Virus record (IMG/VR): IMGVR_UViG_3300020118_000164
Span: 1-64,000 of that record
Origin: a virus
Strand: one strand, 5' to 3'
Length of the DNA: 64,000 nt
In this document: one piece after another, positions 38,496 through 42,645 of the stretch
Layout: each line of letters opens with the position of its first letter
Position numbering within the stretch: the stretch's first letter is position 1
Program-made: the position numbers and the translations under genes
The notes under the pieces: model-generated
Databases searched by the model: none
What the model was told of the DNA's origin: nothing
Seen by the model: only the letters and a program-made list of their open reading frames with translations

Positions 38496-38867
38496 ATGCC
38501 CGCCCTAACCAACGCTGGAGATACGCTTGCCCTGACGCTCGTGCAGGGCATCTCGTTTTCCCTTGACCTCGCACTTCGCCAACCCGACCGCACCACGCCG
38601 ATAGACCTGAGCGGCGCGACGCTCTCGGCGATTGCGGGTGATTACCCGTTCACGGTCGCCGTCACCGATCCGACGTCTGGCGCGTTCACCTTATCCCTCC
38701 TGCCATCAGAGACGCAGGCTCTCCGCGCCACGCGGCGCTACGGCGAGGCCCTCGTCGCCCTCGGCCTAGAGTTCGACCTTCGCATCACATGGCCAAGCGG
38801 TGAGGTGGAGTCCCTCGCTCGCGGCAGGGTAGATGTTGAGTCGTGGTCGCCGCCGGTGACGCCGTGA
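38496..38867 (+). CDS. BppU-like Ig-fold structural/adaptor protein
   Basis: L.QG.SF.L..PIDLSGAT..DPTSG.FTLSL...ET..FDL....G.V.SL.RG.V. Confidence 0.6.
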   Translation: MPALTNAGDTLALTLVQGISFSLDLALRQPDRTTPIDLSGATLSAIAGDYPFTVAVTDPTSGAFTLSLLPSETQALRATRRYGEALVALGLEFDLRITWPSGEVESLARGRVDVESWSPPVTP

Positions 38868-39313
38868 GCCTGCCGATCCTCATAGTCCGGCCGACCTCAC
38901 CGTCTCTGGTGCTGGAGGTCGGCATCCCTGGGCCGCCGGGACCGACTGGCGCGGCAGGGGTCGCGGCCGGAGCGGCTGTGCGGGTAGAGCAGACGGCCCA
39001 CGGGTTGAGTGTCAAGGACTGGATTGCTTTCGACGGCACGTCATGGGTACTGGCGCAGGCCACCATCGGCGGGCTGCGTTGCGACGGCGTCGTGGCGGAG
39101 GTAACAGACGCCGACACCTTCGGTTTTGTACCCGCGGGAGTCACCGACTTCGGCCTACCCCACGGCTACTCACTTGGCCCCCTTTACCTCTCGCAGGACA
39201 CGGCCGGAACCGTCACGTCAACGGCACCCGTGGGCGGCATGAGTCAACGCGTCGCTACGGCAATCTCCGCGACTCGCATCATTGTGCAGCAGCTCCCGCA
39301 GGAGGAGCGCTAA
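38864..39313 (+). CDS. collagen-linker plus capsid cement/decoration-like protein
   Basis: GPPGPTG repeat; QTAHGL..G.V..LYLSQDTAG. Confidence 0.55.
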   Translation: MSLPILIVRPTSPSLVLEVGIPGPPGPTGAAGVAAGAAVRVEQTAHGLSVKDWIAFDGTSWVLAQATIGGLRCDGVVAEVTDADTFGFVPAGVTDFGLPHGYSLGPLYLSQDTAGTVTSTAPVGGMSQRVATAISATRIIVQQLPQEER

Positions 39314-39316
39314 GCT

Positions 39317-42238
39317 GTGCGGTGCCTCTCGTTTCTGCTCGCCGCCGGATTGCTCTGCGGAGCCGCGGTCCTACCCGCCCAAGTGATTCAGATCCCGCCG
39401 CGTGGAACTGTCGCGCAGCTCCCGGCTCCGAGTTCGGCGCTAAAGGGCCGCATCCGCTCCGTCACGGACGGCGCAACGGCCACGGACTGCACGGCTGGCG
39501 GCGGTTCCTACGCCGTCCTGTGCATCGACACCGGAACTGCATGGACTGTAGGCGCGGTTGGCCCGACAGGGGCGCCTGGTGCGCCAGGAGCGACGGGTAC
39601 CGCGGGGGCGGACGGTAAGACCGTGCGCAGCGGTATCGGCGCGCCGTCGTCCGGCCTTGGAGTGGACGGCGACTTCTATATCGACACCGCGAGCAGTTCA
39701 ATCTACGGGCCAAAGACGGCCGGGGCGTGGGGCTCGTCTACGCTTCTGATAGGACCGCCCGGCGCCACGGGAAGCACTGGCGCCGCCGGCGCTACGGGGG
39801 CCGCAGGCGCCAACGGCTCGACATGGTACACGGGCAGTGGCGCGCCTTCGAACGGCACGGGAGTAAACGGCGACTACTACTTCCGAAGCTCGACGGGCGA
39901 GGTCTACACCAAGACCGCCGGCTCTTGGGGATCTCCGATCGCCAGTCTAATCGGACCGACAGGCGCCGCTGGGTCGCCGGGAGCTACGGGTGCAACGGGG
40001 CCGCAGGGTCCGCCGGGTCCGGCGCCGAGCGGAGCGGCAAACCAAGTGCTGGCGACGCCCGATGGCGCCCCCGGAACGGCAGTCCTGCGCCCCTTGGTGG
40101 CGGCCGACGTGCCGACCCTGAATCAATCCACGAACGGCAACGCAGCGACCAGCTCGGATGGGCTCACGAGCGCGACAGGGACCGCCCCGCTGACCCTCTT
40201 GCTCAACAGCAAGGCGCTGATCGGGTCTATCTTGATCACCCCCGCCAATCCTGGCGGCGCCGTGGCACTTCAGGCTTCGACTCCGGGCTCGACGCAGACC
40301 GGCAACTTAAACATCTCTGGCGCGGGCCTGTTCGGCGGCCCTCTCTCCGGCTCCAACCTCTCCGGCACCAACACCGGAGATCAGACGATTACCGGAACAG
40401 GTGACGTCACGGGCTCAGGCACGGGCTCAATCGCCTGGACGATCGCCAGCGGGGCCGTCACTCTCGCAAAGATGGCAAACATGGCCACCGCATCATTTCT
40501 TGGGCGCAACACGGCCGGCACCGGAGCGCCGGAGGTTCTCGGCACTGCCACAGTGAAAACCATGCTTGGTCTCTCCGGCACCAACTCAGGAGACCAGGTA
40601 GTACCCGCAACCACGACCGGGACGGCGAGCAATTGGTTCAGCGCCTATGACGCGACGACGGGGGCGTTCACGAAGTCCCGCCCATCCTGCGCCGATCTCT
40701 CCAATGCCGCCGCGAGCTGTGCCACGGATGCCACGAACGCGACGAACCTCAGCTCAGGGACGATCCCGGCCGGCCGCATGCCAGCGTTCGCCGGCGACAT
40801 GATGACTTCTGCGGGCTCCCTCGCCACGACGGTCGGCAAGATAAACGGCGTGTCCCTTGCCGGGCTCGCGACGGGCATTCTCAAAAACACCACAACTACC
40901 GGCTTTCCGAGCATTGCCGTCGCCGGCGACTTCCCCACTCTTAACCAGAACACGAACGGCAGCGCGGCGACGCTAAGCACGCCGCGTGCGATCTACGGCA
41001 ACAACTTCGACGGGAGCGCGGCGCTCGCCCAGGTCATCGCCTCAACCTACGGCGGCACCGGCAACGGCTTCGCGAAGTTCAGCGGGCCGGCTTCCACGGA
41101 GAAGACGTTCACCTTGCCGAACGCGTCGGCGGCGGTCCTCACCGACAACGCTGCCGTGACGGTAGCGCAGGGGGGCACCGGCGTGGGCGCCATCGCGGCC
41201 CATGGCGTCGTCATCGGCAACGGTACCTCCGCCGTCAACGTCACCGGCGCCGGCACCGCTGGCCAAGTGCTGACGTCGAACGGCGCCGCGGCTGACCCGA
41301 CCTTCCAGGCGGCGGCTGGCGGCCTCGCGAATCCCCTGGCGGCTGGGAGTCTCTCCTCTATGCCTCTCCAGGTTGTGCAGGCGGGGACGGGCCTCTACCA
41401 GCCGGCGACGAACGTGCTCGGTCTGGGAGCGAACGCTGTTGACGTGATGCGCCTAAACTACCTCGCATCGGCCGTTGATTACTTCAACTTCACTCCCGCC
41501 GCTACGGCGAGCCCAGCGACGATCACGATTGCCGCGGCCGGTTCCGATTCCAACATCAACATTCGCCTCGCACCTAAAGGCACCGGCGGCACCGACCTCC
41601 AGGATATCTCCGCCAGCGCACAACGCCTCTATTTCGACCGCTCAACGAGCGGTGCGCCGGTCGTGTTCCGGAACGGTGCCGCGCTGGTGATTCAGGACAA
41701 TGATGGCACCTATACCAACTCGACCTTGCAGGCCGGACCCTATGCCCAGCAAGGCGGCGCCGCGAGTCTCTTCAGGGGAGTGCAGATCGGCAACGGGTTT
41801 CAGCTCAACATCTCAGACGGTACGGACTACAATCGCGGCCTCGCCGCTGTAACCGGCGCGACAGGACTGCGCTCAACGGATGGCAGCACAGGCGTCGGCT
41901 TCATCGCGTCATCGCGGCAGCGATTGACGAAGACCGCCGCCTATACGGTGCTCGCGACGGACAGCGGCGCGGTCTTCAACAACCTGGGGGCGGCGGGCCA
42001 GGTCATACTCACGTTGCCTGCTTGCGGGGCCGTCGGGCTGGCCTATGCCTTCGTCGTCGCTACGGCCCAAAATCTCCAGGTGCTCGCCGTAGGGTCAGAC
42101 AAGATCTATGACGGCAATACGGCATCAGCGGCGGCGGGTCACATGGACTCCTCCTCGATCGGCACCCGCATGGACTTCATCTGTGCATCCACCAACTTGT
42201 GGTCAACCGTCGTAAGTGGTACCCACACCATAACGTAG
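39317..42238 (+). CDS. 973-aa collagen-containing fibre-like protein with N-terminal signal peptide
   Basis: GXY repeats, G.PS..G..GD.Y repeats, GGTG and GQVL motifs typical of phage fibres; starts MRCLSFLLAAGLLCGAAVLPAQ. Confidence 0.75.
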   Translation: MRCLSFLLAAGLLCGAAVLPAQVIQIPPRGTVAQLPAPSSALKGRIRSVTDGATATDCTAGGGSYAVLCIDTGTAWTVGAVGPTGAPGAPGATGTAGADGKTVRSGIGAPSSGLGVDGDFYIDTASSSIYGPKTAGAWGSSTLLIGPPGATGSTGAAGATGAAGANGSTWYTGSGAPSNGTGVNGDYYFRSSTGEVYTKTAGSWGSPIASLIGPTGAAGSPGATGATGPQGPPGPAPSGAANQVLATPDGAPGTAVLRPLVAADVPTLNQSTNGNAATSSDGLTSATGTAPLTLLLNSKALIGSILITPANPGGAVALQASTPGSTQTGNLNISGAGLFGGPLSGSNLSGTNTGDQTITGTGDVTGSGTGSIAWTIASGAVTLAKMANMATASFLGRNTAGTGAPEVLGTATVKTMLGLSGTNSGDQVVPATTTGTASNWFSAYDATTGAFTKSRPSCADLSNAAASCATDATNATNLSSGTIPAGRMPAFAGDMMTSAGSLATTVGKINGVSLAGLATGILKNTTTTGFPSIAVAGDFPTLNQNTNGSAATLSTPRAIYGNNFDGSAALAQVIASTYGGTGNGFAKFSGPASTEKTFTLPNASAAVLTDNAAVTVAQGGTGVGAIAAHGVVIGNGTSAVNVTGAGTAGQVLTSNGAAADPTFQAAAGGLANPLAAGSLSSMPLQVVQAGTGLYQPATNVLGLGANAVDVMRLNYLASAVDYFNFTPAATASPATITIAAAGSDSNINIRLAPKGTGGTDLQDISASAQRLYFDRSTSGAPVVFRNGAALVIQDNDGTYTNSTLQAGPYAQQGGAASLFRGVQIGNGFQLNISDGTDYNRGLAAVTGATGLRSTDGSTGVGFIASSRQRLTKTAAYTVLATDSGAVFNNLGAAGQVILTLPACGAVGLAYAFVVATAQNLQVLAVGSDKIYDGNTASAAAGHMDSSSIGTRMDFICASTNLWSTVVSGTHTIT

Positions 42239-42252
42239 AGGAGCGAGGGTCC

Positions 42253-42645
42253 ATGCGCCAACTCACCGCCTTACTCACCATGCTAATGACCCTCGCCAGT
42301 CCCGCGGTCGCGGCCGTCCGGCCTTGCACCTCTGCGCTGGTGACCGCAGGGCTCTGCAATAGTACCAGCGACGTTCTCGTGAGCTACTCCCTCAGCACCG
42401 TAGACCCTGACGGTGCCGGCCCCCGAGTCGCCATGGCCACCCAGTTCTCCGAGGGCTGCGCCATCACCTTCGACTACCAGGCCATAATCAACGGCGTAGC
42501 GAACCCGGAGACCAAGAGCGCCTTCTGTGACCGGGTGATGAAGTCGGTACTATTCAAGAGTTTTGCCGATCGCTACTACAACGCGCTCGCCGAAGCCACG
42601 AAGCAGCAGACGATCGTCGCGACGCCGGCGGACATCGTGCCGTAG
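42253..42645 (+). CDS. exported hypothetical protein
   Basis: MRQLTALLTMLMTLASPAVA signal-like N-terminus; four Cys. Confidence 0.65.
   Translation: MRQLTALLTMLMTLASPAVAAVRPCTSALVTAGLCNSTSDVLVSYSLSTVDPDGAGPRVAMATQFSEGCAITFDYQAIINGVANPETKSAFCDRVMKSVLFKSFADRYYNALAEATKQQTIVATPADIVP

Follow-up and report, generated by a model that had tools for sequence, protein, structure and literature searches.

The DNA analysed here (the window) consists of the first 64,000 nucleotides of the IMG/VR virus record IMGVR_UViG_3300020118_000164, a single contig of 93,367 bp whose ends share a 127-bp terminal overlap, and the assembly is therefore considered a complete circular phage. The source is an uncultured soil phage of 93 kb; soil metagenomes are the only source of near-identical DNA, and in other soil runs the region described below is covered just by short, low-depth pieces. 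This region, nucleotides 38496 to 42645, includes four open reading frames (ORFs), all on the + strand and abutting or overlapping one another, as the initial annotation had placed them (Table 1). They code for a 123-amino acid protein and a 156-amino acid mini-fibre, neither of which has a leader, a 973-amino acid fibre, and a small protein of 130 amino acids with four cysteines. The last two begin with Sec-type leaders. The cluster had been described as lying upstream of the terminase and far from the tail operon, and this is correct: terL is located 5.7 kb downstream of the four genes and the tail genes, which begin at 60.7 kb, about 18 kb downstream.

The fibre starts at GTG 39317 behind a strong ribosome-binding site (RBS), AGGAGGAG, and its N-terminal sequence is MRCLSFLLAAGLLCGAAVLPA followed, past the predicted cleavage point, by QVIQ. 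The start of the small protein, ATG 42253, is an internal ATG of a longer ORF (42199-42645) and stands behind the strong RBS GAGGAG; the N-terminus reads MRQLTALLTMLMTLASPAVA followed by AVRPC. Leaders were recognized by a basic n-region, an uncharged hydrophobic h-region of 7 to 15 residues, and small residues at positions −1 and −3, with at most about 35 residues counted from a supported start. Both N-termini have a basic n-region, an uncharged hydrophobic h-region and a c-region, which is the n-h-c layout of leaders handled by Sec and signal peptidase I (SPI). In the fibre these parts are MR, CLSFLLAAGLLCGAAVL, and PA in front of the Q, with Ala at −1 and Leu at −3. A six-frame scan of the whole 93-kb genome that combined RBS, leader, and coding-type G+C content at third codon positions (GC3) found just seven genes, namely the fibre (39317), the small protein (42253), the genes at 56379 and 71467, and three small genes on the minus strand. 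The leader pattern is therefore not a chance feature of GC-rich DNA.

Several other readings of these N-termini were considered and rejected. A leaderless isoform of the fibre could start only at GTG 39383, the sole alternative downstream start, but this codon has no RBS in range and is GTA in a natural soil variant. The variant is represented by one contig of depth 3 in run X5, from another soil sample, and was compared over the first 23 codons (39317-39385). Its leader reads MRIASFLLVAGLLCGAAVLPAQV, with three conservative replacements and five in-frame synonymous changes, and stays hydrophobic. Most other soil pieces on the module match the window exactly, unlike the X5 leader variant. The initial annotation had raised the possibility that the true starts lie downstream of the hydrophobic segments; no usable start of this kind was found. 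A lipoprotein signal, cleaved by signal peptidase II (SPII), was sought as the lipobox [LVI][ASTVI][GAS]C closing the h-region. In the fibre the sequence GLLC has Leu at −1 and its Cys is not conserved in homologues, and in the small protein the leader includes no Cys. A twin-arginine (Tat) signal was likewise discarded, both leaders of the module having a single Arg and the motif (S/T)RRxFLK being absent.

The leaders are kept in homologues while their sequence drifts. All 12 aligned members of the small-protein family (alignment A3) have a leader ending in (A/S/F/W)xA and then the conserved mature start (A/G/S)(V/T)RxCTxAxVTxGxC; the leaders themselves differ in sequence and the contigs span 45-69% GC. 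Fibre homologues show differing leaders with the same mature N-terminus behind them: in alignment A4 the leader is variable and conservation resumes at the predicted cut (..PPxxTVAxLP..). By the heuristic described above, a leader is present in 136 of the best 150 members of the family defined by the fibre N-domain. Most of the remaining 14 are mis-started or truncated, and only about three (P0037, P0038 and P0088) are truly leaderless. The proposal of Sec-type leaders on the 973- and 130-amino acid proteins is upheld by the RBS-backed starts, the n-h-c layout and this retention, and the same counts answer the earlier concern that homologues might lack the leader. Judged from the sequence, the fibre and the small protein carry functional-looking Sec/SPI leaders that are conserved across distant relatives. 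Export of both proteins is highly probable, and they very probably fold in the periplasm and not in the cytoplasm.

Behind the leader the fibre includes a Cys-loop domain of 58 amino acids (the N-domain), three collagen runs, shaft repeats and a C-terminal domain. The collagen runs, of eight G-X-Y triplets each, are found at residues 79-102, 146-169 and 213-236 and separate two GDxYxD...Y.K...W modules, and the shaft repeats are built on the motifs DxPTLNQxTNGxAAT and TPRAIYGNNFDGSA. The Pfam Collagen family scored 25.3 bits, under its cutoff of 27.2 bits, and among PHROG families the matches were phrog_4013 and tail-fibre families. The GDxY module matches (tblastn) genes annotated as tail fibre or minor tail protein in cultured phages of Sinorhizobium, Ralstonia and Burkholderia. 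The proteins of Sinorhizobium phage Phosso (PV764938) and of the Burkholderia/Ralstonia FLC-type phages (LC667450, LC819008) have the same combination of collagen and GDxYxD...Y.K...W module, with identities of 46-52% over fibre residues 99-212, and many viral-contig homologues bear the same shaft pieces. For the C-terminal 310 amino acids, just eight weak partial homologues were found among long proteins, and a PDB sequence search with the fibre gave no significant match. By these similarities the fibre is a mosaic of tail-fibre parts.

The N-domain has the consensus PPxxTVAxLP...VTDGxxxxDCTxGGGSxxVLCxxxGxxW, in which C58, C69 and W76 are invariant in the 22 sequences of alignment A4. A profile made from the first 82 residues of the fibre aligned with one relative retrieved 578 matches at E≤1e-3 among 1.84e9 representative proteins, so that the family comprises at least 578 protein clusters. 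In viral contigs the domain heads large fibre-like ORFs in structural modules. It is rare in cellular genomes: a search with a narrow pattern found two loci in the genomes of 185k species, one of them a Bryobacteraceae polysaccharide locus and the other a phage-like contig, and the domain occurs in 3 of 401 Acidobacteriota genomes. An AlphaFold2 (AF2) model of the domain (predicted local distance difference test score, pLDDT, 81) is a small three-stranded sheet with no significant match in the PDB, neither Foldseek nor VIA-align giving anything above chance. Ten proteins of the family, five atypical and five typical with a leader, showed no Pfam domain except for one collagen match.

Two members of the wider family are described here for their context. 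The Bryobacteraceae metagenome-assembled genome (MAG) includes, at L095 9308-19234, a polysaccharide-type locus with glycosyltransferases, a flippase and several large secreted proteins, one of which includes a domain related to the fibre N-domain. Of the five leaders in this locus, four cleave before Gln; Gln at position +1 is therefore not confined to leaders of Bacteroidota. The metagenome protein P0041 (727 amino acids) consists of a Neck1 domain (phrog_169, E 2e-23), an in-frame leader-like segment and the fibre N-domain. A leaderless fusion of Neck1 to the fibre was rejected as the junction retains the leader-like segment, and P0041 probably represents two adjacent genes in one frame; less probably, it is a genuine fusion of Neck1 and fibre in which the hydrophobic segment is internal.

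The gene of the small protein is found directly downstream of the fibre gene in the window and in nine related loci, a gene position like that of tail-fibre assembly or tip proteins of the Tfa or gp38 type. The family is small, with six clusters in 5.8e9 proteins and 11 metagenome loci, and it is absent from the cellular genome contigs scanned. The protein has no Pfam or PHROG match and no match to a PDB sequence. Its AF2 model (pLDDT 79) consists of beta hairpins and a 36-residue C-terminal helix; in searches with Foldseek and VIA-align the best fold reached a Z of 4.4 and matched only helices, nothing being above chance.

The cysteines of the mature fibre are located at residues 58/69, 458/468 and 903/956. 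The initial annotation had noted closely spaced cysteine pairs in both proteins, and each does have them, but the two motifs that it quoted, DCTAGGGSYAVLC (residues 57-69) and SCADLSNAAASC (residues 457-468), both belong to the fibre; the small protein has a pair of its own, PCTSALVTAGLC (residues 24-35). The fibre loop RPSCADLSNAAASC (residues 455-468; nucleotides 40679-40720) resembles VRPCTSALVTAGLC of the small protein (residues 22-35; nucleotides 42316-42357), both being C-x9-C loops preceded by Arg-Pro, and a second copy of the C-x9-C loop is found in one subfamily of the small protein (alignment A3). The seven leader-bearing proteins of the phage have 6, 4, 2, 8, 4, 2 and 8 cysteines in their mature parts, all even and non-zero numbers. 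The cysteine frequency is 1.49% in these proteins versus 0.49% in 15 leaderless structural proteins, a threefold difference. Such paired, even cysteines would fit an oxidising compartment and not the cytoplasm.

The first two genes of the module differ from the others in having no leader. The 123-amino acid protein contains no cysteines and matches phrog_1084 (E 4.6e-11), a family of unknown function. Its nearest ESM-Atlas clusters have a score of 0.95 and are more than 90% viral; one is named 'BppU N-terminal domain-containing protein', with no common Pfam family, and in the other, 'LtfC-like beta-sandwich', 36% of the members carry PF23926 LtfC. The label of BppU-like adaptor given to this ORF therefore agrees with its ESM-Atlas look-alikes and is not confirmed by Pfam, in which the protein has no match; a PDB sequence search gave nothing significant either. 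The 156-amino acid protein begins with a beta strand, continues with a short run of collagen (GIPGPPGPTGAAG) and ends in a knob of about 105 amino acids. The knob search found only two viral contigs, in which it is homologous to the C-terminal domains of the products of L086 7872-8690 (41%) and L101 7012-7947 (35% identity; alignment A6); in L101 it follows a tail-terminator domain (phrog_179, E 3e-13) within a single protein. In three of three genomes (the window, L086 and L101) the knob gene directly precedes a leader-bearing fibre whose mature end is Q(L/V)Ix(V/I)PP. PDB sequence searches with the 156-amino acid protein and with the 310-amino acid protein encoded at 58086 had no significant match.

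The pair of fibre and small-protein genes is found in at least eight distinct phage contigs, within the neck module, where it overlaps or abuts its neighbours and is translationally coupled with the neck genes. The gene directly upstream of the leader-bearing fibre codes for a Neck1/tail completion protein in L084 (phrog_5) and L088 (phrog_169), the head closure protein Hc3 in L097 (phrog_578, E 3.6e-101), a gp6-like adaptor in L082, and a tail terminator with the C-terminal knob in L101, to which L086 is alike by position and knob homology. After the small protein follows a homologue of the 310-amino acid protein and then the major tail protein in six loci (L082, L083, L084, L085, L088 and L092; BLASTP). 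The L084 contig (45% GC) has in addition, at 5746-8092, an ORF for a 443-amino acid glycosyltransferase-like protein and another of 284 amino acids, which in the neck module immediately precede Neck1 and the leader-bearing fibre; the former may be a hint at glycosylation of the fibre.

Within the window, no promoter-like or terminator-like sites were detected between 38025 and 41800, and none flank or split the four genes up to the promoter-like site located directly after the module, at which the next operon starts. The GC3 of the module genes (0.76-0.82) is like that of the adjacent genes. As read from this arrangement, the module genes are expressed within the late operon and not as an independent insert. 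In this phage the module seems to have left the neck operon, along with its own leaderless adaptors.

Five further proteins of the phage carry leaders. The 237-amino acid protein encoded directly after the major capsid gene is, over residues 114-237, 56% identical to a leaderless 159-amino acid post-capsid protein of L082; a leader and an N-terminal extension of about 90 amino acids have therefore been added to a protein in the decoration position. The 770-amino acid tail-module protein has a weak Pfam match to a pectate-lyase-like beta-helix and shares a 28-amino acid fibre motif with the 973-amino acid fibre; in L091 a homologue of its C-terminal domain precedes the homologue of the small protein. 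The three small leader proteins encoded on the minus strand look like classic exported morons. The lysis region (G000 85921-87025; L094 11921-13025) includes a phage lysozyme followed by two coiled-coil proteins with a single transmembrane segment each.

Table 1. Location of the four-gene module and of other features of the phage. Coordinates are those of the window unless preceded by G000 or L.
Feature	Coordinates	Strand	Remarks
123-amino acid ORF	38496-38867	+	Leaderless; small beta-sandwich adaptor candidate (BppU-N/LtfC-like)
156-amino acid ORF	38843-39313	+	Leaderless mini-fibre; collagen stalk and knob
Fibre RBS, AGGAGGAG	39300-39307	+	9-nt spacer to GTG 39317
Fibre leader, 21 codons	39317-39379	+	Sec/SPI-type; predicted cleavage between LPA and Q
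Fibre, 973 amino acids	39317-42238	+	Collagen/tail-fibre-repeat protein with leader
Fibre N-terminal Cys-loop domain, 58 amino acids	39380-39556	+	Mature protein
Small-gene RBS, GAGGAG	42238-42243	+	9-nt spacer to ATG 42253; overlaps fibre stop TAG 42236-42238
Small four-cysteine protein, 130 amino acids	42253-42645	+	Leader 42253-42312; predicted cleavage between AVA and A
Promoter-like site, TTGACG-17-TATGGT with TG	42649-42677	+	Directly after module; start of next operon
DnaB	33525		
DUF2280 small-terminase-like gene	46270
Ro60	47040
terL	48370
Portal	51417
Protease	53813
HK97-type capsid	54788
237-amino acid leader protein	56379-57092	+	Directly after major capsid gene; leader MMRRNVISLAVLGALLLTLGLGA before Q, with RBS; two cysteines
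Head-tail adaptor	57451
Head-tail adaptor, 310-amino acid neck-module protein	58086-59018	+	Leaderless; weak match to phrog_195 'head-tail adaptor'
Tape measure, 2036 amino acids	62986-69096
770-amino acid tail-module protein	G000 71467-73779 (L093 11467-13779)		Outside window; leader MRIVRTLGTATALALTLASAAAA before Q; 8 cysteines
Small leader protein	G000 76135-76476 (L094)	−	After tail genes; 4 cysteines
Small leader protein	G000 77492-77851 (L094)	−	After tail genes; 2 cysteines
Small leader protein	G000 79061-79387 (L094)	−	After tail genes; 8 cysteines

Taken as a whole, the module most likely codes for an accessory fibre set, that is, neck or side fibres, that would be built in two compartments. 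Both chains would cross Sec unfolded and their leaders would be cut between A and Q in the fibre and between A and A in the small protein. The fibre would then trimerise by means of its collagen runs, and the C-x9-11-C loops would be oxidised in the periplasm. The small protein, which must share the compartment of the fibre, would be a co-exported folding partner, capping partner or linker of it. Once the holin perforates the inner membrane during lysis, virions built in the cytoplasm and carrying the leaderless adaptor-like protein and the collagen-stalked knob would meet the mature fibres, which would dock at the neck or tail. We estimate that the chances of this complete scheme, from Sec export of accessory neck or side fibres through their oxidation in the periplasm to docking on virions at lysis, are about even. 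The initial annotation had suggested that the fibre and its partner may be exported and disulfide-bonded: the former is supported by the RBS-backed starts and by leader conservation, and the latter is consistent with cysteines that are paired, conserved and even in number.

Association with the virion is favoured, indirectly, by the synteny with neck modules, by the leaderless adaptor and knob genes, by the similarity of the shaft modules to annotated tail fibres of cultured phages and to PHROG tail-fibre families, and by a precedent from mass spectrometry. A cultured tailed phage, Cellulophaga phage phi18:3 (KC821620, Pachyviridae), has leader-bearing proteins in its virion preparations: the record annotates gp085, gp086 and gp087 as 'structural protein' from tandem mass spectrometry (MS/MS) of virions. 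These are consecutive late proteins of 547-785 amino acids that, like the fibre of the window, begin with a host-type Sec leader cleaved before Gln (MKNKITIIMILMSISFGYS, MKKTIYILSILLLTISGVSA and MKHTFSIVLFFILSIGLNA, each followed by Q). Behind the cut, gp085 begins with ..TTVQLNALTKKKVGDIYYNAD.., which is similar to the TVAxLP...G....TDG module at the motif level only. On the other hand, phi18:3 is a podovirus of a marine Bacteroidota host, and no collagen runs, Cys-loop domain or small four-cysteine partner were seen in gp085-087. The record is silent on the leaders; no discussion of them was found in the literature, nor was a paper on the virion proteomics of phi18:3.

A number of points weigh against the scheme. 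The leader calls come from a heuristic and not from a trained predictor. The module of this phage is not part of the structural operon, and the link between knob or adaptor and fibre is one of gene adjacency in just three genomes. The AF2 models of the two conserved domains are unlike anything solved, and therefore no docking interface can be argued from structure. No o-spanin lipoprotein that could settle the host envelope type was recognized in the lysis cassette. The beta-helix protein of the tail module resembles an enzyme, one that may work without being attached to virions, and the detection of the phi18:3 proteins by mass spectrometry could mean co-purification. We know of no tailed phage documented to add periplasm-matured parts to its virions, and our literature search yielded no account of tailed-phage fibres exported by Sec.

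The main alternative, which we regard as less probable, is that the two proteins leave the cytoplasm without ever becoming bound to virions, acting instead on the envelope or surroundings of the infected cell late in infection. Possible roles of this kind are masking or occupation of receptors, which would spare the progeny from adsorbing to debris, work on extracellular polymers together with the exported beta-helix protein, or action as adhesins comparable to the MAT fibres of Bdellovibrio bacteriovorus. A leader routes proteins away from the compartment of assembly. Within the phage itself, the five further exported proteins, among them the pectate-lyase-like beta-helix and the three moron-like proteins, point in the same direction, and a few cellular genomes, as in the Bryobacteraceae locus, bear the N-domain in non-phage polysaccharide loci. 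The MAT fibres are trimers similar to phage fibres that have a signal peptide and a conserved N-domain and are displayed on the cell surface (Caulton et al. 2024, PMC10769870), and prophages of P. gingivalis include genes with signal peptides following the Q-rule (PMC5837995) that were read by their authors as modifiers of the host surface (PMC10367356).

The likeness to these systems has limits. MAT fibres share with the fibre of the window the signal peptide and the long shaft and, like it, have a conserved domain of their own directly behind the peptide; their C-terminal tip is swappable, and the fibres fold outside the cytoplasm. However, they are encoded by the cell and serve prey recognition at the surface of the predator, whereas the genes studied here are borne by a phage and coupled to neck genes in relatives. 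The N-domain is also different in size, with about 130 beta-rich amino acids in MAT versus about 58 amino acids and three strands (AF2) in the window fibre, and no sequence match was found between the latter and the solved MAT tips. Lom and Bor of lambda, Llp of T5 and Cor of phi80 and N15, which are exported and not part of the virion, and the products of the P. gingivalis genes have Sec or lipoprotein leaders too, are often encoded beside tail or fibre genes, and act at the envelope. These are small outer-membrane proteins or lipoproteins and usually morons with their own expression signals; unlike them, the 973-amino acid product in the window is of the tail-fibre trimer type, comes with a partner, lacks expression signals of its own, and is linked to the neck module in relatives.

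Several points speak against action at the envelope alone. The pair is translationally coupled inside the neck modules of relatives, no promoter or terminator of its own was found, and it is accompanied by the adaptor and knob genes, which have no leader. Cellular genomes rarely include the family, as described above. No signal for crossing the outer membrane was seen, the Pfam search giving no type IX secretion system (T9SS), PEP-CTERM or autotransporter domain, and in phi18:3 leader-bearing proteins were detected in virions. A related proposal of the initial annotation, display of these proteins on lysogens, is disfavoured because the genes lack their own promoter and are both co-transcribed and translationally coupled with genes of the late or structural type.

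It is improbable, though in keeping with conventional assembly, that the hydrophobic N-termini do not serve for export and that the fibre is cytoplasmic, the helix having some other purpose, for instance as a plug for attachment, as an aid to trimerisation or as a short-lived membrane anchor. The assembly of tailed phages is, in the textbook account, wholly cytoplasmic, and so normally is that of their fibres. The shaft is one of ordinary tail-fibre modules, and the few family members without a leader would agree with such a role. However, the full n-h-c layout and the AxA-type sites are kept while the sequence drifts, and conservation begins exactly after the predicted cut. The small partner, which is unrelated to the fibre, has a leader too, and the cysteines are even and paired in all seven leader proteins. 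Moreover, the fibres that can be presumed to assemble in the cytoplasm look quite different at this end. About 70 of 79 viral collagen-fibre homologues that have the shaft alone in common with the window fibre lack a leader, and their N-terminus consists of beta strands running into G-X-Y; the collagen fibres of the cultured Sinorhizobium, Burkholderia and Ralstonia phages likewise have no signal peptide, and their beta-strand N-termini lead straight into G-X-Y. Lastly, it is very improbable that the module is a recently captured set of genes for host surface proteins (a moron) that takes no part in the phage life cycle itself: in this phage it does lie outside the main structural operon, and host-type leaders with Gln at +1 are also found in the Bryobacteraceae MAG, but the lack of a promoter or terminator of its own and a GC3 like that of its neighbours mean that it is not a moron, the same pair is present inside the neck modules of other phages, and the small protein was found in no cellular genome scanned.

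Beyond this phage, we would suggest only tentatively that some tailed phages assemble in two compartments, with leaderless adaptor and knob domains of neck proteins acting as docking sites, and that the N-domain family marks a hitherto undescribed class of periplasm-matured virion fibres that is widespread in soil phages. If fibres that recognize the host routinely mature in the periplasm, the particles could bear receptor-binding structures stabilised by disulfides and perhaps modified by the host, and lysis would itself be an assembly step. Recombinant production of such fibres would then need periplasmic expression, and pipelines that count a signal peptide against the assignment 'structural protein' would err for many phages of the environment. 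Should the proteins act at the envelope and not join virions, they would be large phage effectors of a new class, expressed late. In both cases the results define previously unnamed families: a conserved three-part cassette of knob/adaptor, exported fibre and exported four-cysteine partner, and a family of N-domains linked to leaders.

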